A stretch of DNA of 43,468 bases from an uncultured Candidatus Saccharibacteria bacterium (lineage in GTDB: Bacteria; Patescibacteriota; Minisyncoccia; Phycocordibacterales; UBA918). Below, one piece after another: positions 3,201-31,620 of the stretch. Below the pieces are notes generated by a model that ran no database searches, had not been told where the DNA came from, and worked only from the letters and a program-made list of their open reading frames with translations. Each line of letters starts with the position of its first letter. Position 1 is the stretch's first letter. Where the stretch lies: NCBI GenBank assembly GCA_964493145.1, contig CAZBMV010000004.1, positions 1-43,468 on the forward strand, in the 5' to 3' direction. The position numbers and the translations under genes were made by a program.

Positions 3201-4731
3201 TTGGTGAAACGTCTGATTCTATAATCCGAAGATACGCATTCTCATTGCCTATGCTCACACTACCATACCCATCAATAGAAAAATATGCGGGCACTTCATC
3301 ACTTTCATTAACACTGAATGCTAACGCTTCTCCTGTGGAATAAACCTGCAATTTAGCAATATCATTTGTACCAGATGTAGGAAACCCGATTTTCACCTTT
3401 CCGCTTGCATCAATGACAAATGGCGAAACGTCATTTGCGCTATCGTTGACAACAAAACTATTCCCCGTGCCACCATTCGTGAGTGTGAGGACCGCGGTAC
3501 CTGTTGCTGTGATCGTGGTAGAAGCATCAAGCAACAGTGAATCTTTGAACTCAGTAAAATCAAGTGAGTCAGGAGTGATGAACGAATTGGCGGTTGTGGT
3601 AACGCCCCACGTACCCGCCGAAATGTATGGGATGCCTGTCTCGCCGGAAGTGTCCATTCCGGTACCTCCGTACATTGCACCTATTTCGGTACCAATCCAC
3701 GAACCACTAATATTCCCTGATGCATCAACACTGAAACTATTGTTCTCAAAACTTCCATCTCCGTATATCCAAAAATTTTCCGATGCGAGTACGGTTTCCC
3801 AATTTGATCCTATGGAAATTGCCTCTTCGTATGCGCTCGTATCTGAATTAAGCCCATCAATAAGGAGCCCGTAGTATGTTTCATCTCCACTGGGAGTTCC
3901 AGTGGCATTGAGGTTGATGTGGATACCTGAATTCGTGTTCCCGGCACCATTACCAACTTGCATATTCACATACAAACCATCCACACCGTCGGCAATGATG
4001 CCGGTACCGGTTGCTGTTGACGTGTCAACAATCATCATGTCATCCGTTGGGACATCATTGACCCCGAAGTACGTACTCCCCATACCGATAATACCCGTGC
4101 TTAGAACAGAAAATATTTCTGTCGTACCCGAAAAAAGATTAAAGATATCGCCAGAACCTGATTGTGTAATTGTGAGAAGTGAGCTCGCACTTGAAGTGGC
4201 GATGGTGTTTGGTGCATCGGTACGCACAAACTGTGATGATGTGAGTCCGTCCAGTTTGTCTGCTTCAAATGCGGCGGGGACGGCGCCGAGTATTTTGCGC
4301 GGACTCATTTCGCCGTCCCATGTGGGAGTAGAGGTGCCGCCAATTTCCACGCCGAGGTACAGAGTTTGGTTGAAGTCCACACCCGTGAGCGGTGACGTAC
4401 TTCCGAGCATGATGCTGAAGAGGCCGTTCGTTACCTGTACCTTGTCGGTGCCCGTGAGTTCCTCACTCCAGATTGCGCTCGTCGTTGCGATGCTTGGCGA
4501 GGTGAGGAGCCAGAAGCGCATGTTGTATGTGCCGTCAGCGACCGCAACGTTTGATGCATTGGTAAGTTTACCTTGGTAGTTGATTTCGTAATTTGGGGCG
4601 GCATCCGTCACGCGCGCACCGAACGAGAGAAGAGCGAACGCAACACCGACGACACCGACGCCGATCATGCGAACTACGGACATCCGATGTCCATAATTCG
4701 CGTGTATTTGGTTTTTAGGATTGGTGTTCAT
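1..4731 (-). CDS. Giant secreted/surface adhesin or tail-fibre-like protein, >1577 aa, 3' end outside the window
   Basis: ATG at 4731 (alternative 4683) reads MNTNPKNQ..., a hydrophobic signal segment, then APNYEINYQGKLTNASNVAVADGTYNMRFWL...NGLFSIMLGS...EMSPRKILGAVPAAF. The same frame still reads NTTGYEN at nt 1, and the ORF track shows no stop-terminated ORF in this frame, so it is open to the edge. Contains recurrent GNVGIGTTTP-type motifs, NTTG repeats and a probable carbohydrate-binding beta-sandwich (ELVTNGTFTGSATGW...IDNVSIK, ~330-730). Confidence 0.9.
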   Translation of the reverse strand, partial: MNTNPKNQIHANYGHRMSVVRMIGVGVVGVAFALLSFGARVTDAAPNYEINYQGKLTNASNVAVADGTYNMRFWLLTSPSIATTSAIWSEELTGTDKVQVTNGLFSIMLGSTSPLTGVDFNQTLYLGVEIGGTSTPTWDGEMSPRKILGAVPAAFEADKLDGLTSSQFVRTDAPNTIATSSASSLLTITQSGSGDIFNLFSGTTEIFSVLSTGIIGMGSTYFGVNDVPTDDMMIVDTSTATGTGIIADGVDGLYVNMQVGNGAGNTNSGIHINLNATGTPSGDETYYGLLIDGLNSDTSAYEEAISIGSNWETVLASENFWIYGDGSFENNSFSVDASGNISGSWIGTEIGAMYGGTGMDTSGETGIPYISAGTWGVTTTANSFITPDSLDFTEFKDSLLLDASTTITATGTAVLTLTNGGTGNSFVVNDSANDVSPFVIDASGKVKIGFPTSGTNDIAKLQVYSTGEALAFSVNESDEVPAYFSIDGYGSVSIGNENAYLRIIESDVSPSYYGIFDVTDLTADRTYTFPDTSGTVAMVDGGQSFTSATWEGDVIDVGYGGTGTTTYFTAGSIIFATTSGVYAQDNTNLFWDDASKRLGIGTTSPSAALALTGSGGANLFSFASSTGSNLLSLGRDGRLTFGTTTNSNIFINGGPTSTNPLFSSNTNNVGIGNETLSYLGSGATDNIALGYQALYGSSSVPMTGDYNVAIGYQTGHKNTTGARNSFMGSYAGNFNTTGFDNSFLGYESGYTNTTGSYNLFVGNYTGEYNKTGYANVGVGYKSGRGVFDNSYSSSTFVGYQTGLNLTTGSGNLLLGYQVGDALTSGSNNIAIGYDIDLPSNNASNQLTIGNLIFGTGIDGTGTSVSSGNIGIGSTTPSRKLTVAGDLYVLNNVTAASSTITNATSTTLAVTGSFKIGSDVITDITGTGLSVTNGVLSASASGGSSNWLFNGTRLTPSSTSAIGIVTLASSTIGGGTGATGLTISGGATTTGNAYFGGKLSLGSTTPESQTLTIDKSGLTGAVIGGIKERLQFTNNTLSAVYYGDNTYIVNAPTATSTLVGSMLRIEDNSTLGNTVRGLEVQAYRGTNTKGENTALSGFARTFGVRGTTLGDAGDTYQPAGVFAETQGTTQGNALRAYSGTITSEELVSFYHDGSAFTGTGLLMNFGNTTGSFTGSSAKFVDFQVAGDSKFVVGYNGYTGIGTSSPSRLLSVAGDMILTGALYDGANSAGTNGMVLQTTGSGVTWVATSTLGLSGGAGDGVSNWLFDGTRLTPSSTSAIGIVTLASSTIGGGTGATGLTISGGATTTGNAYFGGNVGIGTTTPSAKLTVANTPETGSELVTNGTFTGSATGWTLQSGCSVYNSNNVTVTYDATCQGDADSPALSTDFSTVAGQTYILTFTLTNVATDTVTFYLDVGQFVGSNEEPFGNGTHLVAFTTDYTGTETITFENVDFISDSTWTIDNVSIKAATITPSFIVTGWDNEAWLSLGGDILGNSAFGSKALFSNTTGYNNTANGNYSLHSNTTGYENTANGNYSLYSNTTGLYNTANGNYSLYSNTTGQANTANGNYSLHSNTTGYEN
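800..948 (-). repeat. 149-bp intragenic direct repeat, copy A
   Basis: Matches 1748-1896 with 9 differences by manual alignment. Encodes WLF(D/N)GTRLTPSSTSAIGIVTLASSTIGGGTGATGLTISGGATTTGNAYFG. Confidence 0.95.
1748..1896 (-). repeat. 149-bp intragenic direct repeat, copy B
   Basis: Offset of 948 bp (in frame) from copy A, with only one amino-acid change. Confidence 0.95.
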
Positions 4732-4791
4732 TGTGTTGTACCTGTATTCTTCTTGTGCGTTTTTTTGTACGTAATATATTTTCAGCAATCA

Positions 4792-5337
4792 CTACGAAGA
4801 AGACCTCAGCGGAGTTCCGTCTCCACCGGAGGCCTTCTCTTTTGATTTCGCATCCCCTGTAACCGTACTTGACTTTTCTGGTGTGCCTGTGTAACCTTGT
4901 ATATACACATTGGCTTCGGCCCCCGAGGACCCCGCGCGAGCGGGGTCCGTTTTTGTTACCGCACCAGTAACAGCAGTGATTAGTTTTGCAAATACATCAT
5001 GAGGTACAACGCCTATCTGTCGTACGAGTCGTTTACGATCAAAAGCACGCATCTGAAGTATAAGTGCATCATTCTCTGTACCTTTCAAAATGAATCGCAC
5101 ACGGAATGGACGGTTTACTAACTTCGTTGTAAGTGGAATACCCCAGAACATATCTTCTGTAAATTGTCGCAGTACAATAACAGGACGACTAAAATCTCCT
5201 GTTTGTGAATGTTGCTCAGAACCAACATTCACTCCAATTGTGCACCACCACACTTCACGTTCATGACAGTGTGGACTATTCGTTGTTGAGTCAATTCTTT
5301 TTTTTCTTTTATTCCATCGGTCAAAATCTTTTCCCAT
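4792..5337 (-). CDS. PemK/MazF-family endoribonuclease-like toxin with no adjacent antitoxin ORF (alternative start 5391)
   Basis: EVWWCTIGVNVGSEQ...FSRPVIVLRQF...WGIPLTT...LQMRAFDRKRL match PemK/MazF-fold motifs, followed by a ~50-aa low-complexity tail. Confidence 0.8.
   Translation of the reverse strand: MGKDFDRWNKRKKRIDSTTNSPHCHEREVWWCTIGVNVGSEQHSQTGDFSRPVIVLRQFTEDMFWGIPLTTKLVNRPFRVRFILKGTENDALILQMRAFDRKRLVRQIGVVPHDVFAKLITAVTGAVTKTDPARAGSSGAEANVYIQGYTGTPEKSSTVTGDAKSKEKASGGDGTPLRSSS
4798..4838 (-). terminator. 41-nt hairpin at the 3' end of the toxin ORF
   Basis: Minus strand: AGAAGGCCTC-C-GGTGGAG-ACGGAA-CTCCGCT-GAGGTCTTCT, giving 10+7 bp stems whose non-WC pairs are G-U on this strand. 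Confidence 0.6.
4869..4897 (+). promoter_or_regulatory. Sigma70-type promoter antisense to the toxin gene
   Basis: TTGACT (4869-4874), 17-bp spacer ending TGTG, then TAACCT (4892-4897). Same geometry as the TA promoters at 18529-18557 and 20894-20922. Confidence 0.65.
4904..4954 (+). ncRNA. Predicted ~50-nt antisense small RNA (candidate RNA antitoxin)
   Basis: Downstream of the promoter lie GGC-TTCG-GCC (4912-4921), then the 9-bp stem GGACCCCGC-GCGA-GCGGGGTCC (4927-4948) followed by GTTTTT, an intrinsic terminator. Confidence 0.55.
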
Positions 5338-5395
5338 GAGAAAAATGGTATTGGTAGTTTCTGTATTCTTTTGTGGAAAATCGTTTCCCATAAAA

Positions 5396-6109
5396 TTAAT
5401 TGTGTTTTACCGGAACGAGCAAGAACCGATACGCATCTCCTTCACGTTCGTTCTTGAAGATTGGCGTGATGATACCGGTATCGGAATTTCCGGGATCAAC
5501 GGAAACGGAAACCGGGTCGGAGAAAGAGTCGCGAATTTCATCTACCGTCGTTGCGGTAAAAAGTTCATCCGGCGCAACGATGAGTGACGTGTGCGTCGTC
5601 GTCGCAATGCGCGCGCTTGTTGCATTTACCGGTGTTGTCGTCGGTACAGAAACAGCGATGTGGACTACCTCTGGCTCAGGTGAAATGAATGAATAGAAAG
5701 ACTTTGCGAGTGACGCAAGGAATCCTTCGTGTACGCTTGCCTGTTGCGAATTCTCTGCCACACCGAGGTACCCAGTCGCACCAATGGAAAGTCCAATAAC
5801 GACGATGACGAGAGTCTCCACGAGTGCCGTATGGTGTCCGTGAGATTTTTTCGCGTGCTCGTATTTTTTTATTTCCTCTCTGCGCTCAATGCTCAGCGAA
5901 CGCCTCCGAGCGATCTGTTCTTCCTTTGCATTTTTAAAATACCCTTCCGCGGATGGAAGGTGGACGTACCACTTGTTCCCGATTTTTTGCCCCTCAATGT
6001 ATCCCTGTTTAATGCGCAAAAGGAGGTAGTCTTTCGTGTACCCAAATTTCTTACCGGCGATAGTTGCCGGCACGTATTCTTTCCCTTCAATGGTGAGTAC
6101 GCTCGTCAT
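5396..6109 (-). CDS. N-terminal excisionase/MerR-like HTH + single TM helix + extracytoplasmic domain
   Basis: EYVPATIAGKKFGYTKDYLLLRIKQGYIEGQKIGNKWYV (winged HTH) and TM ALVETLVIVVIGLSIGATGYLGV. Confidence 0.8.
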   Translation of the reverse strand: MTSVLTIEGKEYVPATIAGKKFGYTKDYLLLRIKQGYIEGQKIGNKWYVHLPSAEGYFKNAKEEQIARRRSLSIERREEIKKYEHAKKSHGHHTALVETLVIVVIGLSIGATGYLGVAENSQQASVHEGFLASLAKSFYSFISPEPEVVHIAVSVPTTTPVNATSARIATTTHTSLIVAPDELFTATTVDEIRDSFSDPVSVSVDPGNSDTGIITPIFKNEREGDAYRFLLVPVKHN

Positions 6110-6504: not shown

Positions 6505-7401
6505 CTATATTTTCAGTTCTAGAATAGACAATGTATCCTCTAGCGAAATTGAGTATGAATGATTTTCTAAAACGCTACCGTCATCGCTAAATGAGTATGT
6601 ACTCGTTTTTGATGTACATGCGGTGGCAACTACCAGTATGAGTATTACAGCAACGAATGCAATGTACGCAAGTACCCCCATTTTTTCCTGTGATACCTCT
6701 CCTTCTTGCTGGTTTTCTGCAATGATTGGAGTTGTTTCATCCGTTTGCTCTGTGTTCTGCGATGCGACACGCTCAGCAAAACTCATTTTCTTTGCAATTA
6801 TTGGCGCGCTCTGCTCTTCTTCAGTGGGTACAACCTCTACCTCACGTACAATATTCTTGGGAGCCTCCTTAACTTTGGGGGTGCTTTTAAGAATTGTGGG
6901 GGTGAGTACGGTGGTATCACCGTCTATAACGCCATCGGTAACGTCAACGATCTTGATTTTGCCCTGCATCTGGACCTTCTCACCCTTGTTGATGATGGTT
7001 TTTTCATCACCAATATCCTCGTCAGCAGTAATTCTCGTTTTTTTGTTCTCTTTCTCTGAGCGTATGTCCAATTTTCTTGTTTCGGGTATGAGCGATTCAT
7101 CATCGTGCTCGTACTGAATCACTATATTTCTGGAGATATTTTTTGTTTCTGTGGATTGCTGTCTGTGTTCCTCAATTGAGCGCTTTGCGTACTCACGCGC
7201 CTTAACGCGCGCGATCCTCTTCTTCTCTACACGGTGCGTTCCGAGTTCGTCCTTATTCACATACCATGTTCGTCCGATGAGGTGGGCGTCAACTTGACCA
7301 CTCCGGCACAACTGCCCAACATAGTCAGACGCATAGCCGAGATCCTTTGCGGCCTTTGACGCCTTTACGTAGTCTTTTCCATCAAGAACAAGTACCTCCA
7401 T
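6505..7401 (-). CDS. Paralogous HTH protein with a charged linker and C-terminal TM helix
   Basis: DYVKASKAAKDLGYASDYVGQLCRSGQVDAHLIGRTWYV aligns with the HTH of 5396-6109. TM GVLAYIAFVAVILILVVATAC. Confidence 0.8.
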   Translation of the reverse strand: MEVLVLDGKDYVKASKAAKDLGYASDYVGQLCRSGQVDAHLIGRTWYVNKDELGTHRVEKKRIARVKAREYAKRSIEEHRQQSTETKNISRNIVIQYEHDDESLIPETRKLDIRSEKENKKTRITADEDIGDEKTIINKGEKVQMQGKIKIVDVTDGVIDGDTTVLTPTILKSTPKVKEAPKNIVREVEVVPTEEEQSAPIIAKKMSFAERVASQNTEQTDETTPIIAENQQEGEVSQEKMGVLAYIAFVAVILILVVATACTSKTSTYSFSDDGSVLENHSYSISLEDTLSILELKI

Positions 7402-7480: not shown

Positions 7481-8887
7481 TTAGAGCCCTATTATTTCGC
7501 GGAGAAGCTTCATTGCGATCGCAGGATTCACCGAACCCTTAGAAAGCTTCATGCACTGACCAAGAAGAAACTGGAGTGCTGATTCTTTTCCACTTCGCAC
7601 ATCAGCAACAACACCGGCATTTTCGCGTATAACCTGATCAACAATGGTTCGCACCGTATCTTCGGAGTTATTCTGAAGCAGTCCACGCTCTGATACCAAC
7701 TGCATAGGATCCCTGTTCTCAAATACAACTTCAGGCAATATATCCTTCGCCACTCGGGACGTTACCGTGCCTTCAGTAATAAGAGCACACAACGAAACGA
7801 AGTTCTGAGTATCTGTTTGTGCTAGTGTTTTTCCTTCATGGAGTAACGGAACAAGGTCTGTTGAAATATAGTTCGCGGCAATTTTTACCACAGCCGGTTT
7901 ATCACCTGCACATTTTATTATTCCAGCAAAAAATTCATCAATATTTTTTTCAGAAATAATAGTTTCAATTTGTTCTCTCGTTAATCCGAGTTCCCTATAT
8001 TTATCGCGCTTGTATTGAGGTAATACCGGCATTTCCTCTTCTAGACGAGATAGTAAATCTGTTTTTGCAATATCAAGTTTTGGTAAATCAGGATCGGGAA
8101 AATACCTGTAGTCGTGTGCCGTTTCTTTCACCCGTTGCGAAAAAGTTCGTGATTTTGCTTCATCCCACCCACGTGTTTCCTGAATTACGGCTTCATTGCG
8201 CTCTAAAATCTCTATTTGACGCTTAATTTCGTACAAAATAGCGCTTTCTACCGATTTAAATGAGTTTAAATTCTTCACCTCTACCTTTGTTCCCCACTTT
8301 TCGGTATCGCTCACGGAAATGTTTGCCTCCACACGCATCTCCCCCTTTTCCATATTTGCATCGGAAACTCCGAGAGTGCGGAGGAGGAGTTGCAGTTCAC
8401 GTGCAAAGTCACCTGCGGTTTTTGCATCATGGATTACCGGTTCAGTCACCAACTCCATGAGAGGTACACCCGCACGGTTAAAGTCAATGATGCTTCCATC
8501 TCCCTGATCGTGGAGGGAGCGAGCGGTGTCCTCTTCAAGGTGAACACGGGTTATGGTGACACCATTAAGACTTCCGCCACTCACGAGCGGATACGCGTAC
8601 TGACTGATTTGGTACCCCTTCGGGATGTCAGGGTAAAAATAATTCTTGCGATCAAACTCTGTGTACGTTGCAAGTGTTCCACCGAGCGCGTGTCCGACCT
8701 TGAGTACATGCTTCACCGCTTCCATATTTATCGTCGGGAGTGTTCCTGGGTGTCCCATACAGATAGGACAGATGAGTGTGTTCTGCTCTGCGTGGTGCGG
8801 ATCGTTCTTTGAATCGCAAAACATCTTCGTCTCAGTCTTCAACTCTGCGTGGATTTCAAGACCGATGGTGGGCGTGTACGTTTTCAT
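7481..8887 (-). CDS. gatB: Asp-tRNA(Asn)/Glu-tRNA(Gln) amidotransferase subunit B
   Basis: IGLEIHAEL, FDRKNYFYPDIPKGYQISQ, HLEEDT, DFNRAGVPLMELVTEP, GEMRVEANIS, YRYFPDPDL. Confidence 0.98.
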   Translation of the reverse strand: MKTYTPTIGLEIHAELKTETKMFCDSKNDPHHAEQNTLICPICMGHPGTLPTINMEAVKHVLKVGHALGGTLATYTEFDRKNYFYPDIPKGYQISQYAYPLVSGGSLNGVTITRVHLEEDTARSLHDQGDGSIIDFNRAGVPLMELVTEPVIHDAKTAGDFARELQLLLRTLGVSDANMEKGEMRVEANISVSDTEKWGTKVEVKNLNSFKSVESAILYEIKRQIEILERNEAVIQETRGWDEAKSRTFSQRVKETAHDYRYFPDPDLPKLDIAKTDLLSRLEEEMPVLPQYKRDKYRELGLTREQIETIISEKNIDEFFAGIIKCAGDKPAVVKIAANYISTDLVPLLHEGKTLAQTDTQNFVSLCALITEGTVTSRVAKDILPEVVFENRDPMQLVSERGLLQNNSEDTVRTIVDQVIRENAGVVADVRSGKESALQFLLGQCMKLSKGSVNPAIAMKLLREIIGL

Positions 8888-20368: not shown

Positions 20369-20641
20369 CTACCTATAGACATCCTTGCGATGTTTGATAT
20401 TCAAAATCATCAGAATAATAACGGAACCAGATTCATTTACTTCAAAGATTACTCTGTAGTCACCAACACGGTACCGGTATAATCCCACCAACGACCCAGT
20501 GAGTGCCTTTGCTCGTGTGAAAACAGTAGCATCTTCGCTAAACACCTTTACCTTTGCAACGATTCTCTGTGCGATCTTTTTATCAAGCGATTGAAGGTCT
20601 TTTAACGCCTTTGCAGTATATCGGCGAATCACCTTTTTCAT
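20369..20641 (-). CDS. relE: RelE/ParE-family toxin
   Basis: YTAKALKDLQSLD...LYRYRVGDYRVIF...IKHRKDVYR. Confidence 0.9.
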   Translation of the reverse strand: MKKVIRRYTAKALKDLQSLDKKIAQRIVAKVKVFSEDATVFTRAKALTGSLVGLYRYRVGDYRVIFEVNESGSVIILMILNIKHRKDVYR

Positions 20642-20643
20642 AT

Positions 20644-20886
20644 CTACGCAAGCATCTCAAGAACTTCTTCCTCACTATATACCCTCCCCTTTTTAGCGTC
20701 CTCTTTTGCTTCAAGAATTTCAGCAAAAAATGAATTAAGTGTTTCGTCCTCGCTAAACGGGGTCACCTCAAAGAGGGGCTTCTTGTGGCTCACAACAATA
20801 TACCGTGTTTTATTTTCACTTGCTTTTCGTGCGTATTCAGCAATTTTCTGACGAAAATCCTTAATTCCTACAAATTGTGTATTCAT
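20644..20886 (-). CDS. Phd/YefM-like antitoxin
   Basis: MNTQFVGIKDFRQKIAEYA...RYIVVSHKKPLF and acidic C-terminus EAKEDAKKGRVYSEEEV. Confidence 0.82.
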   Translation of the reverse strand: MNTQFVGIKDFRQKIAEYARKASENKTRYIVVSHKKPLFEVTPFSEDETLNSFFAEILEAKEDAKKGRVYSEEEVLEMLA

Positions 20887-20892
20887 GCATAA

Positions 20893-20922
20893 AAGTGTAC
20901 ACAATTGTGTACACTTCGTCAA
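20893..20922 (-). promoter_or_regulatory. phd-relE promoter (TTGACG-17-TACACT) with a perfect 24-bp operator palindrome
   Basis: AAGTGTACACAATTGTGTACACTT (20893-20916); ATG 7 nt after the -10. Confidence 0.8.
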
Positions 20923-20935
20923 CCGCCAAACGTCC

Positions 20936-20967
20936 ATAGAAAAAAAGAGCCAAAGGATTGGCTCTTT
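20936..20967 (-). terminator. Terminator hairpin R3, copy 1
   Basis: Minus strand AAAGAGCCAA-TCCT-TTGGCTCTTT followed by a T-tract. Near-identical to 24139-24169. Confidence 0.8.
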
Positions 20968-24877: not shown

Positions 24878-25588
24878 CTACTTATTGAGTTTAATACGTC
24901 GCTCTTTCTCCACTCCAAAATCACTATCCTCTTCCGAAATGCGACTGATGTCATCCTCGTCTGAAGGACCAACTTGAACCTCCATAACGTCAAGCGGTTC
25001 ATTGTCGGGCGCTTGAAGCACATGCCAGACACCAGGTAAATTCACCCGCACTTCACCATTCGGCATGAAAAAGAATTCGCTCCGTTTTGAGTGTTTCTGA
25101 AGAGAGAGACTCTTCCCCGCGTCAACGTGAATGAGCTTAACCTTTACCATCGGCATATCTATGATGACGTTGTAGTGTCCCCAGCGAGTTTCTACACGTG
25201 ACCGAGAATTCACAATTGAACTGGATGCGTACTTCCCTCCACCGAGTTCAAATACCGGCTCAATACCCAACTGTTCACAGAGCAGAAGTTCCGGCGTATT
25301 GCCAGGACCACGATCTCCACCGTTCCCAAAGTAATCCGGCTTGATTCTCGCAAGTGCCTCACACACCGTTCCGTCGGTGTCATCAACAGAATGAATGAAT
25401 GGGGTATACGCCTCAAGAATTTTCTTTCTATCAATCCACGGCTGAAATAGAAACCCCTTCTTACGAATGAGCCACGCATCACTATTGAGAATAATATGGA
25501 CCTCACCATACTCTCGCGCCGATTCAATCATTGCAATGTGCCCCGGGTGTATGGGATCAAATCCACCTGAAATCATTATTTTTTTCAT
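24878..25588 (-). CDS. Cytidylyltransferase-like (HxGH) domain fused to a cupin (type II mannose-6-P isomerase-like)
   Basis: SGGFDPIHPGH...FGNGGDR...GGGKYASSS, then ETRWGHY...KSLSLQKHSKRSE...EVQVG..DEDDISR. Confidence 0.85.
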   Translation of the reverse strand: MKKIMISGGFDPIHPGHIAMIESAREYGEVHIILNSDAWLIRKKGFLFQPWIDRKKILEAYTPFIHSVDDTDGTVCEALARIKPDYFGNGGDRGPGNTPELLLCEQLGIEPVFELGGGKYASSSIVNSRSRVETRWGHYNVIIDMPMVKVKLIHVDAGKSLSLQKHSKRSEFFFMPNGEVRVNLPGVWHVLQAPDNEPLDVMEVQVGPSDEDDISRISEEDSDFGVEKERRIKLNK

Positions 25589-25687
25589 ACAATCTGTAAC
25601 TCAAACAATACCATATTTGTTTCTTTTGATAAAAAGGTGGTAACTGAACGCTCTTGTGTTTTGTTAAATGGTAGACTGATTAAAATT

Positions 25688-29916: not shown

Positions 29917-31620
29917 ATGGGAAAGACACTCATGCACTACTCTTCGGAGAACAAGCACCCGAGTGATCGGGTCGCTCTCCTTCCCCGAAATGCACTAAGT
30001 GGTATGCATGTGTGTTTCATCAACATGCCCCTCCGCGAAAGTGCACGACCGAATACGCCACCACAAGGTCCGGCACTCATGGCGGCACGTCTCCGTGAAT
30101 ACGGAGCGAACGTCACGATTGTTGACCTCAACGCGTATCGCATCACCGACACCTTTGCACATGAACGCAGTCTTGCAAACGGTCGCCACCTGAACGAAAA
30201 AGAGGCGGCGGATCTCTTGCTTGCTCACTTCAACGTTCATGGAGCACCTGATGTCATTGGGCTCTCGGGTAAAATAACGACGCTCAAATGGCAACAGTGG
30301 GTGACACGTTTCTGTGCGAAAGTCGTCCCCGATGCGTTTATTGTTTCGGGTGGCGGCCTCGCAACGGAGTTTCGTGCGGGTCTCTTTAACTGGATACCCG
30401 AACTTGATGCGGTTGGACACTCGGAAGGTGATGACATTATCCTCCTCTGTGTTCACGATGTGAAAACTGCCGGAAATAAGACATCGGCAATGACATCGTT
30501 ACCGAGTTACATCGGTGACCGCAACGGTAAGCCGAGGTTCATCTATGCCGGAGACAGGCCGAGAGACCTTGATGTGTTGCCATTCGCGGCGTGGGACTTA
30601 CTTGAAAGGGACGTGTACGGAAACCCGGTTCTTGAGTGGTACATCACCACTCCCGTGTGGGGCCTCGCCGCGAACAATTCATCTGCGGCGAATTTCATCA
30701 CGGAACGGAGTCTAACCACCGTCTCATCCCGAGGATGTCCGCACGCATGTGCGTTTTGCTACCGTGGAGCGCAAGGTGAACGTAACTGGGGCATCAGGAG
30801 CCCACAAAACCTCCGGGAGGAGGCTGAGTGGCTCATCAATGCGTACCGCATTGATTTCCTCGGATTCCCCGATGATAACTTTGCGGTTTCGCCCAAGCGG
30901 TGCCAAGCGTTGCCTGAAGCATTCAATGGTCTCAACTTCCGTTGGGGAACGCACACGCGACTAGATGAGTGCACCATGGACCGCCTTGAACCAATGGCGG
31001 AATCAGGGTGCATTTACATCGGCGTTGGTGCTGAGAGTGCCTCAAAGAACACCCTCTATCGCATGAAGAAGGGTGGACACATTATCAAGAAACACGGCGT
31101 GGAGCGCTTCACAACGGTTGACGGCTATGAGTTCCCCACCATGATGGTGGAAGGAATACAGAACTGCCGATCGGTGGGCATACACGTGAATGCGACATGG
31201 ATTATGGGGTACCCGAGAGAAACACTCGGAGATCTCAAGACGAGCGTCGCTTTCATCAAGTGGCAAGAGGAGCTCTACACGCAGGGGCTCGCGAACGGTA
31301 CGCCGGAGTTTGCACTCGCGATGGCATCAGTCAATAGGAGGATGTTCACCGCAACCGCATACCCCGGTACCGAGATGTTTCGTGATCCATTCGTGCAACA
31401 AGCGCTTCGGGAACACTTCGGTCTTTCGTTTGAACAAAATGGAGACCCCGTGTGCGATAGTGCCTTAGAGTGGTACGTACGCGAACTTGACGATGCAACG
31501 AAAGTCCTTACGGGAAAAGGTGGCGCACCGCTCAATTTTTCCGATATGTCTGAAGACGTTTTTCTTCAGGCGCGCGCGTACATTGATTCCGGTCAAACCG
31601 AAAAAATACTTGAGATGTAA
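29917..31620 (+). CDS. Cobalamin-dependent (B12-binding) radical SAM enzyme
   Basis: N-terminal B12-binding-like segment (PPQGPALMAARL...DVIGLSG...VSGGGLAT), SRGCPHACAFC (CxxxCxxC), FPDDNF, IGVGAES, WIMGYPRET. Confidence 0.9.
   Translation: MGKTLMHYSSENKHPSDRVALLPRNALSGMHVCFINMPLRESARPNTPPQGPALMAARLREYGANVTIVDLNAYRITDTFAHERSLANGRHLNEKEAADLLLAHFNVHGAPDVIGLSGKITTLKWQQWVTRFCAKVVPDAFIVSGGGLATEFRAGLFNWIPELDAVGHSEGDDIILLCVHDVKTAGNKTSAMTSLPSYIGDRNGKPRFIYAGDRPRDLDVLPFAAWDLLERDVYGNPVLEWYITTPVWGLAANNSSAANFITERSLTTVSSRGCPHACAFCYRGAQGERNWGIRSPQNLREEAEWLINAYRIDFLGFPDDNFAVSPKRCQALPEAFNGLNFRWGTHTRLDECTMDRLEPMAESGCIYIGVGAESASKNTLYRMKKGGHIIKKHGVERFTTVDGYEFPTMMVEGIQNCRSVGIHVNATWIMGYPRETLGDLKTSVAFIKWQEELYTQGLANGTPEFALAMASVNRRMFTATAYPGTEMFRDPFVQQALREHFGLSFEQNGDPVCDSALEWYVRELDDATKVLTGKGGAPLNFSDMSEDVFLQARAYIDSGQTEKILEM

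Follow-up and report, generated by a model that had tools for sequence, protein, structure and literature searches.

A convergent small-RNA gene as the probable antidote of a solitary MazF/PemK toxin

The toxin gene and the small-RNA gene facing it

Here we describe a toxin gene and a predicted small-RNA gene that face each other in a 43,468-nt stretch of DNA from an uncultured Candidatus Saccharibacteria bacterium (contig CAZBMV010000004.1, positions 1 to 43,468; hereafter, the window). In the window's list of open reading frames (ORFs), the toxin appears on the minus strand as a PemK-family ORF of 199 aa, counted from its first ATG; the small-RNA gene lies on the plus strand, inside the 3′ part of the same frame (Table 1). 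Residues 45 to 141 of the ORF matched the Pfam family PF02452 (PemK_toxin) with 35 bits against a cut-off of 23.1, so that the PemK/MazF identity claimed in an earlier reading of the bare sequence (hereafter, the original prediction) holds.

Table 1. Features of the PemK locus, in window coordinates
Feature	Position	Strand	Basis
PemK/MazF-family toxin, full ORF	4792..5391	-	ORF list; PF02452, 35 bits; 162 homologues, mostly 127-157 aa
Conserved PemK core, residues 18-147	4951..5340	-	Alignment A1; alignment with S. aureus MazF; AF2; Foldseek
C-terminal tail, residues 148-199, predicted disordered	4792..4950	-	AF2 pLDDT; third-codon-position conservation
-35 box TTGACT of the small-RNA promoter	4869..4874	+	Sequence; identical in 7 close relatives
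-10 box TAACCT, 17-nt spacer from -35	4892..4897	+	Sequence; family comparison
Predicted ~53-nt small RNA	4905..4957	+	Covariance-model match 4904-4957; fold
Hairpin 1, GGC-UUCG-GCC (GGCTTCGGCC in DNA)	4912..4921	+	Sequence; homologous loci
Intrinsic terminator, 9-bp stem (8 G-C), GCGA loop, then GUUUUUGUU	4927..4957	+	Scan; compensatory changes
Long hairpin with imperfect pairing, at the stop of the extended ORF	4798..4838	.	Terminator-like on both strands (scan); fold energy

All 38 homologues that were aligned matched PF02452 and no other Pfam family, and a search against profiles of solved structures returned MazF/EndoA (E about 5e-4). In the AlphaFold2 (AF2) model, the core reached a predicted local distance difference test (pLDDT) score of 70 to 90; with the disordered tail included the mean was 65.8, which makes the model moderately confident overall. 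The top 50 Foldseek matches were all MazF, EndoA or MoxT, with a probability of 1.0 and target template-modelling (TM) scores of 0.7 to 0.78. A ToxN-like identity was rejected: PemK_toxin was the only Pfam match of the 38 homologues, and ToxN did not occur among the top fold matches. By sequence and predicted fold (an SH3-like barrel), the protein is a genuine member of the MazF/PemK family.

Four residues, R69, P70, T88 and T89, were invariant in alignment A1. The catalytic-type Arg69 lies within an RPV motif, and both this motif and the Thr match up with their counterparts in S. aureus MazF. With invariant Arg and Thr at the MazF catalytic positions and a predicted MazF fold, the toxin looks active. 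Specific to the subfamily is an N-terminal helix with the motif FDxWNxxKK. The homologues start at what is M18 of the window ORF (MxKDFDRWN; position 5340), and they form a family of soluble proteins of 127 to 199 aa, most of them 127 to 157 aa long and some with tails. The window is a contig of Patescibacteria type, and the nearest homologues of its PemK protein in the protein search came from Kaiserbacteria, Paceibacterota and Taylorbacteria assemblies.

On the opposite strand, the original prediction had proposed a TTGACT-17-TAACCT promoter, a C(UUCG)G hairpin and a GC-stem terminator, and all three are present at the positions listed in Table 1. The predicted RNA reads, in order, 5′-ACACAUU, hairpin 1, CCCGA, the terminator hairpin and GUUUUUGUU; it would start at about 4905, as placed from the position of the −10 box. 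The terminator stem-loop itself (4927-4948, plus strand) consists of GGACCCCGC-GCGA-GCGGGGTCC, followed by GTTTTTGTT. It was the top plus-strand match of a generic scan, which called 7 terminator-like sites against 2.8 ± 1.7 expected. At 53 nt, the RNA folds into two hairpins with −25.5 kcal/mol (z = −2.46). The composite pattern occurs once in the window, with 0 occurrences expected, and a covariance model built from homologues (see below) had a single window match, at 4904-4957 on the plus strand (67.8 bits, E = 3e-18). The promoter stayed below the threshold of a generic scan because its −10 box matches TATAAT at only three of six positions (T1, A2 and T6 kept). Seven close relatives have TTGACT-17-TATCCT at the equivalent place, so that the window, with TAACCT, departs by a single base from a conserved promoter. 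Rfam 15 gave no match in the window at gathering thresholds, with only sub-threshold noise in 4500-5600, and nothing on the RNA element in 10 diverse loci at permissive E-values. Taken on their own, without comparison, the features of the window are suggestive but not compelling.

Conservation of the RNA gene and its linkage to PemK

The protein search yielded 162 PemK homologues, and 80 genomic loci were fetched for a comparison of their 3′ regions. Starting from 36 sequences and then rebuilt on 60 matches, a covariance model detected the RNA element in at least 60 of the 80 loci, next to PemK and on the strand opposite to it. Most of the remaining loci showed the same layout with a divergent sequence, the ~20 most divergent ones being judged by eye; lineages with such divergent elements include Rickettsiales, Trueperaceae, Verrucomicrobiales, Saprospiraceae, Micavibrio and Ardenticatenaceae. 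Taken together, nearly all of the 80 loci have the PemK/RNA pair, and its carriers range from Patescibacteria to Rickettsiales, Trueperaceae and Bdellovibrionales. Throughout, the RNA element stands directly 3′ of PemK, be it translated or located after the stop codon, and the U tract often spans the pemK stop codon on the complementary strand. Even where the element is untranslated, its promoter and terminator signals are kept.

Of 59 homologous loci, 43 have the −35 sequence TTGAC[AT] where the window has its own −35 box. The promoter spacer measures 16 to 18 nt, and the −10 box fits TAnnnT at nearly every locus, with TGn in front of it in 29 of the 59. Measured to the start of the covariance model, the leader begins 4 to 7 nt after the end of the −10 box across the family. 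It reads UACACAUU in the clade of the window and either UAUUAGU or CUAUAC in others; outside Patescibacteria, most lineages have UACAAAU. Hairpin 1 has the invariant sequence GGC-UUCG-GCC in Patescibacteria; elsewhere, its place is taken by a GC stem of 3 to 4 bp, for example UGCC-GUUA-GGCA or GGC-ACUA-GCC. A short linker, the GC-rich terminator hairpin and the U tract complete the unit.

Two variations on this promoter region were observed. One Saccharibacteria-labelled clade (L012, L016 and L018, at ~3430-3490) has the RNA core with no TTGAC/−10 pair where one usually stands; in front of the leader there is an extra hairpin, so that the RNA of this clade may be longer or otherwise promoted. 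In addition, 18 of 57 loci, among them L001, L003 (3470-3490), L009, L028 and L048, have a DnaA-box-like 9-mer (TTATCCACA or its complement, with at most one mismatch) just 5′ of the −35 box, compared with a background of 1.5% of random 60-nt windows. It may constitute a regulatory input to the RNA promoter, and is absent from our window at 4820-4868.

The covariance alignment had 97.4% of its cells paired, as compared with 49 to 62% when the partners were slid. Compensatory changes were seen at seven of the eight modelled terminator pairs, in agreement with RNAalifold, and at one of the three pairs of hairpin 1 (GC to CG six times, GC to AU once). These counts rest on alignments fitted to the covariance model, which favours structure; covariation was visible by eye in the raw, unfitted sequences, too. 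Wobble pairs numbered 25 G.U against a single A.C, and the RNA strand is therefore the one opposite PemK, which is the plus strand in the window. These sequence comparisons strongly support a real small-RNA gene with a promoter of its own, lying across from the 3′ end of the toxin gene.

A chance coincidence of promoter-like and terminator-like sequences, or a shared terminator without an RNA product, would fit the weak −10 box of the window and the generic scan that called no promoter there. This explanation has to contend with conservation, covariation, strand asymmetry and exclusive linkage over at least 80 loci, as well as with an RNA that is expressed at the homologous locus of the plasmid pVir (see below). 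Since the comparative data already contradict coincidence, we give it next to no credence.

The tail of the window protein is where the two genes overlap. In the homologue alignment, the tail surpasses much of the enzyme in conservation, with KTTDPAxAGSSEAEANV followed by Y..GYT...KKS; many homologue ORFs end right after ...EANV, and the 127-aa forms end before the motif. The first ~17 residues of the tail (TKTDPARAGSSGAEANV) are a translation of the RNA gene. In back-translation, DPARAGS corresponds to the terminator stem and GAEA to the UUCG hairpin; further downstream, GYT overlaps the −10 box, and KS (KSS in the window) with the A-initial codon that follows makes up the −35 box. Within the clade that translates the tail, third codon positions are 94% conserved in the tail versus 55% in the PemK core (p = 1e-10), and residues 154 to 187 of the window protein have a pLDDT below 50 in the AF2 model. 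The tail is therefore conserved at the nucleotide level.

One could also regard the conserved tail as a functional peptide, for instance an intramolecular inhibitor mimicking the acidic C-terminus of MazE, with the DNA features as its by-products. DPAxAGSSEAEANV is indeed conserved in one clade and mildly acidic. However, many homologues carry the same DNA element untranslated after the stop codon, where its promoter and terminator signals are conserved all the same, and the third-position conservation and the predicted disorder also speak against a peptide function. We consider such a peptide very improbable. As the original prediction had it, the tail is shaped by the overlapping RNA, whose gene it for the most part simply translates.

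The association with PemK was also visible in a blind scan of metagenome contigs for the promoter-plus-core pattern, made without reference to PemK, which gave 44 loci. Twenty-two of these were genuine elements with hairpin and U tract, and a convergent PemK ORF stood beside all 22; the remainder comprised 2 genuine elements at contig ends and 20 chance matches in GC-rich coding DNA. Matches to a bare 16-mer on viral contigs (n = 120) were discarded, all of them being coincidences in coding sequence with no PemK nearby.

Three tandem PemK paralogues were observed on each of two Kaiserbacteria-type contigs (L001:149-3446 and L004:1681-4770). Those on L001 have one convergent element each, and the third element on L004 is divergent. 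The RNA genes of such tandem paralogues differ in their leaders and linkers, and hairpin 1 is identical among the L001 copies. Two RNA genes in tandem occur at L009, L108, L032 and L047. We also noticed truncated or stop-split PemK frames beside an intact RNA gene (L036:2992-3240 and L067:2974-3381). Among the loci examined, no intact PemK clearly lacking an RNA gene was seen, and this asymmetry, in which a broken PemK keeps its RNA, is expected if the RNA is a protective partner.

The module, ~0.5 kb in size, occurs in unrelated genomic contexts as well as on plasmids and in prophages. The genes 5′ of PemK are unrelated housekeeping genes, coding for an S41 peptidase, MnmA, an ABC-F protein, Trp/Tyr-tRNA synthetase, AlaRS, an NYN protein or topoisomerase I. 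On one Patescibacteria contig, a match to the type III hammerhead ribozyme (L008:2704-2758, plus strand; 46.9 bits against a gathering score of 48.5) lies ~240 nt 5′ of the PemK gene. On two groundwater contigs, the gene directly after the PemK/RNA module matches PF22296 (bAvd; L252:1175-1767 and L253:1126-1718), an accessory protein of diversity-generating retroelements.

Clustering of small ORFs up to 150 nt upstream and up to 450 nt downstream of PemK gave lineage-specific synteny only and no conserved small ORF. A hidden protein antitoxin was therefore rejected, there being no conserved ORF on either side of PemK, and the RNA gene is the only universally conserved companion of this PemK subfamily. 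A lineage-specific cluster of upstream ORFs (L012, L013 and L018) was considered as an antitoxin and dropped for want of significant family matches. On a Nitratiruptor plasmid, a 62-aa ORF (L248:1055-1243, plus strand) that starts inside the RNA promoter region downstream of PemK shows weak, sub-threshold similarity to ribbon-helix-helix proteins and no significant family match; this ORF may code for a partner protein peculiar to its lineage, or else for a regulator unrelated to PemK. The original statement that no antitoxin ORF stands beside the toxin is right insofar as there is no conserved protein partner, but it passes over a 237-aa ORF (5396-6109, minus strand) that stops 4 nt 5′ of the first ATG of the PemK ORF. 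This ORF was not found beside PemK homologues.

Evidence for expression of such an RNA comes from Campylobacterota. A tblastn search found PemK homologues on plasmids of Campylobacter, Helicobacter and Nitratiruptor, and also in CJIE4 prophages. The homologue on pVir of C. jejuni 81-176, CJJ81176_pVir0047 (30634-31038, plus strand; 36% identity, 80% length), is faced by CJpv3, a small RNA (sRNA) of 77 nt, seen both in dRNA-seq and on a Northern blot, that runs on the minus strand of pVir from 31119 to 31043 (Dugar et al. 2013, PMC3656092, Table S12). That is, CJpv3 is convergent to pVir0047 and ends 5 nt after its stop codon (end of the coding sequence, 31038). In Table S5 of the same study, the step height at the start site of CJpv3, 16164, exceeds all others listed for pVir, and that at the pVir0047 start (30608) is 28, amounting to a ~580-fold excess of start-site signal for the sRNA by step height. 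At this one homologous locus, such an RNA is thus made in large excess over the toxin mRNA. No function was assigned to CJpv3 by Dugar et al. (PMC3656092).

The pVir0047/CJpv3 pair resembles the window pair in having a homologous toxin and a convergent sRNA that abuts the stop codon. The sRNAs themselves differ, CJpv3 having 77 nt and three hairpins, the window RNA ~53 nt and two. Covariance model R2 does not detect CJpv3, which makes it at most a candidate homologue of the window RNA; the layout and an AAUUGGC motif are shared. The same convergent layout, with an extended −10 box, was found on Nitratiruptor and H. suis plasmids and in the CJIE4 prophage.

According to what two citing papers (PMC7826846, PMC10470494) relate of Shen et al. 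2016, pVir carries a type I toxin-antitoxin (TA) pair, cjrA/cjpT. This may be the pVir0047/CJpv3 locus, one of two candidate pairs on pVir. The second candidate pair consists of the sRNA CJpv2 and pVir0034, a 41-aa ORF with a hydrophobic N-terminus (L251:785-910, minus strand, equal to pVir 25484-25609) that is no longer annotated in RefSeq. CJpv2, which faces pVir0034, is abundant, with a start site at 25268 and a step height of 2740 (PMC3656092). The two resemble a classical type I system, and cjrA/cjpT could be this pair instead.

How the RNA might restrain the toxin

Based on its linkage, the lack of any other partner and analogy, the RNA gene is probably the missing antidote of the PemK toxin. 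Our preferred reading, to which we assign a probability of roughly 0.4, is that the RNA is an antitoxin that acts mainly in cis, as an antisense RNA. Of the original proposal of an RNA antitoxin, the RNA gene, its linkage to PemK, the lack of a protein partner and expression at the pVir homologue have been borne out; that PemK is toxic, that the RNA neutralises it, and that it does so by pairing is what we infer.

On the cis-antisense reading, the locus would be a two-gene TA-like module composed of a MazF/PemK-fold endoribonuclease and a convergent ~50-nt RNA, the gene for which is equipped with a strong promoter of sigma-70 type and with a terminator that abuts the toxin stop codon or, in the window, falls within the toxin frame. 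Since pemK has no terminator before the RNA gene, its transcript would carry the full complement of the RNA, and RNA present in excess would pair with this 3′ segment of the pemK mRNA. In addition, the RNA promoter would send polymerases head-on into pemK. Pairing and head-on transcription together would hold the level of translatable toxin mRNA low. In the window and its clade, the duplex would form inside the ORF, and cleavage there would produce a message without a stop codon. Once synthesis of the RNA stopped, the short RNA would decay and the toxin would be made.

The tail-to-tail convergent layout, which is kept across phyla, supports cis-antisense action, as a purely trans-acting protein ligand needs no such arrangement. 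A number of observations weigh against it. Regarding the RNA gene of the window, its −10 box (TAACCT) is the weakest of the family. More generally, the sequence of the leader and hairpin 1 is conserved far beyond antisense needs, given that any sequence complements its own opposite strand. The coding region and the ribosome-binding site of pemK lie outside the overlap in most lineages, where the RNA covers only its untranslated 3′ end. Nor was there cognate-specific pairing between the RNAs and the 5′ regions of their pemK genes (p = 0.33), and pairing of the pVir RNA with the 5′ region of its toxin was no better than that of shuffles, 105 of 300 of which reached it. Finally, a recognisable sense-strand terminator beyond the RNA gene was present in only 7 of 53 loci, which leaves the pemK mRNA without a defined 3′ end. 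Masking of the Shine-Dalgarno sequence by a CCUCC in the linker had been considered and was dropped, the 5′ pairing not being cognate-specific; many pemK genes of the subfamily have no obvious Shine-Dalgarno sequence.

The conservation of the leader and hairpin 1 is best explained by the main rival, in which the RNA acts on the PemK protein itself and neutralises it as in type III systems. Here, the single-stranded leader (ACACAUU/ACAAAUU) and hairpin 1 would occupy the RNA groove of the dimeric MazF and act there as a product mimic or an inferior substrate. The terminator stem drifts freely, while leader, hairpin 1 and linker keep their sequence or their shape from phylum to phylum, which is the pattern expected of a motif recognised by a protein. 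MazF-family proteins do bind short single-stranded RNA (the solved complexes 5hjz and 4mdx were among the fold matches), and the position of the RNA outside the coding sequence in most lineages, the tandem RNA genes at several loci, which would raise its dose, and the large excess of the pVir RNA over the toxin mRNA would all suit a protein ligand. On the other hand, a trans-acting ligand leaves the universal convergent, abutting layout unexplained. The toxins known to be inhibited by RNA, ToxN, CptN and TenpN, belong to a different sequence family and use processed repeat arrays, and an identical hairpin 1 in three paralogues of one genome would permit cross-talk. On balance, direct binding seems to us rather unlikely, if the most serious competitor of cis-antisense action.

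A more far-reaching version, somewhat less likely again, would make the window a founding or Patescibacterial member of an uncatalogued, phylum-spanning TA class in which a MazF/PemK toxin is neutralised by a ~50-nt convergent RNA that binds it through leader and hairpin 1, combining a type I architecture with a type III mechanism; the RNA promoter of many lineages may in addition be wired to DnaA by way of the adjacent DnaA-box-like site.

Alternatively, the RNA may be real and linked to PemK without being an antitoxin. PemK might process or turn over the RNA, the RNA might regulate other targets, or the two might form a joint sensor or defence unit, with PemK itself being restrained by an unlinked protein or by a low intrinsic activity. 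Such arrangements have a precedent in solitary MazF homologues reported to be under unlinked control, for example MazF-mx and MrpC (PMC4803016). They would also accord with the fact that both toxicity and its neutralisation by the RNA are deduced, with the many loci in housekeeping rather than mobile contexts, and with the DnaA-box-like 9-mer, whose frequency (18 of 57 versus 1.5%) hints at wiring beyond that of a simple addiction module. What speaks against them is the conservation of the catalytic residues, together with an occurrence in unrelated contexts, on plasmids, in prophages and in tandem paralogous arrays that is reminiscent of TA modules. Moreover, pseudogenised PemK (L036, L067) keeps its RNA, and the converse, an intact PemK clearly without RNA, was not seen. 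We regard a role other than that of an antitoxin as unlikely.

Surroundings in the window and relation to known systems

The long ORFs listed at ~4.7 to 9 kb of the window are all on the minus strand. Those preceding the PemK ORF include a 468-aa ORF (7481-8887) and two further ORFs, at 6505-7401 and 5396-6109, neither of which matched Pfam or NCBIfam. The latter two have the N-terminal motif GKxYV...GY..DY...G.I.......WYV in common, and the shorter of them also contains a hydrophobic stretch. At the other end of the PemK ORF, the hairpin that the original prediction placed at 4798-4838 is present and strong, with an imperfect stem of 18 bp and −27.9 kcal/mol (z = −4.69) on the minus strand. 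It may form the 3′ end of the PemK mRNA or act as a two-way terminator.

Of the two protein-antitoxin operons that the original prediction saw elsewhere in the window, one was confirmed. This conventional type II pair (20369-20937, minus strand) consists of a ParE-toxin ORF of 90 aa (PF05016, E = 7e-12) and an adjoining Phd/YefM-like ORF of 97 aa, the similarity of which is sub-threshold. The window contains no tRNA or tmRNA genes. The PADLOC library of defence systems gave no match, and has no model for the PemK protein of the window.

More than half of MazF/PemK-type toxin genes are 'solo', and how these are restrained is a long-standing question (PMC2701414). One large solo subfamily now gains a concrete partner in the form of a conserved small-RNA gene. 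We found no description of a PemK-associated convergent sRNA family in the literature covered, which did not extend to Shen et al. 2016. The bacteria that carry the module include minimal-genome Patescibacteria, intracellular Rickettsiales and predatory bacteria, and it is also present on Campylobacter and Helicobacter plasmids and prophages. Should the RNA be an antitoxin, RNA-controlled TA systems would extend to the classic MazF fold and bridge types I and III, and genes now annotated as partnerless 'type II toxins' would be joined to a new RNA family. The covariance model could seed such a family in Rfam.

In terms of its protein, the module resembles the type II systems MazEF and PemIK (Kid-Kis), with which it has the toxin family, the fold and the positions of the catalytic Arg and Thr in common. 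It differs from them in that its PemK has no adjacent MazE or PemI gene, carries an additional helix at the N-terminus (FDxWNxxKK) and is accompanied by a conserved RNA.

Like the type III systems ToxIN, CptIN and TenpIN, the module combines an endoribonuclease of a Kid/MazF-related fold with a noncoding RNA and lacks a protein antitoxin. The ToxN analogy drawn in the original prediction is nevertheless a loose one. It captures the pairing of an RNase-fold toxin with an RNA, but the protein is a genuine MazF/PemK, and whereas type III RNAs are tandem repeats located upstream on the same strand and processed by the toxin, the RNA here comes from a single convergent gene downstream. No tandem repeats relevant to a type III array were found at 4400-5900.

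The arrangement of the genes is that of 3′-convergent antisense type I systems, such as par of pAD1 (fst/RNA II, with a shared two-way terminator) and txpA/RatA and bsrG/SR4 of B. subtilis. In these systems, too, a short, abundant RNA is made from its own promoter, convergent to the toxin gene and overlapping or abutting its 3′ end, and a terminator hairpin is common to both transcripts. Type I toxins are small hydrophobic membrane peptides of less than ~60 aa, in contrast with the soluble, endoribonuclease-fold PemK of 127 to 199 aa; exceptions to the rule of hydrophobic peptides are SymE and RalR. Different from what would be expected of a purely antisense type I RNA is also the conservation of leader and hairpin 1 across phyla in an RNA of only ~50 nt. 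At the sequence level, the window pair nonetheless has the defining arrangement of a type I system, an RNA gene on the plus strand inside the toxin ORF on the minus strand, and transcription of such an RNA is known only from the homologous toxin locus on pVir.

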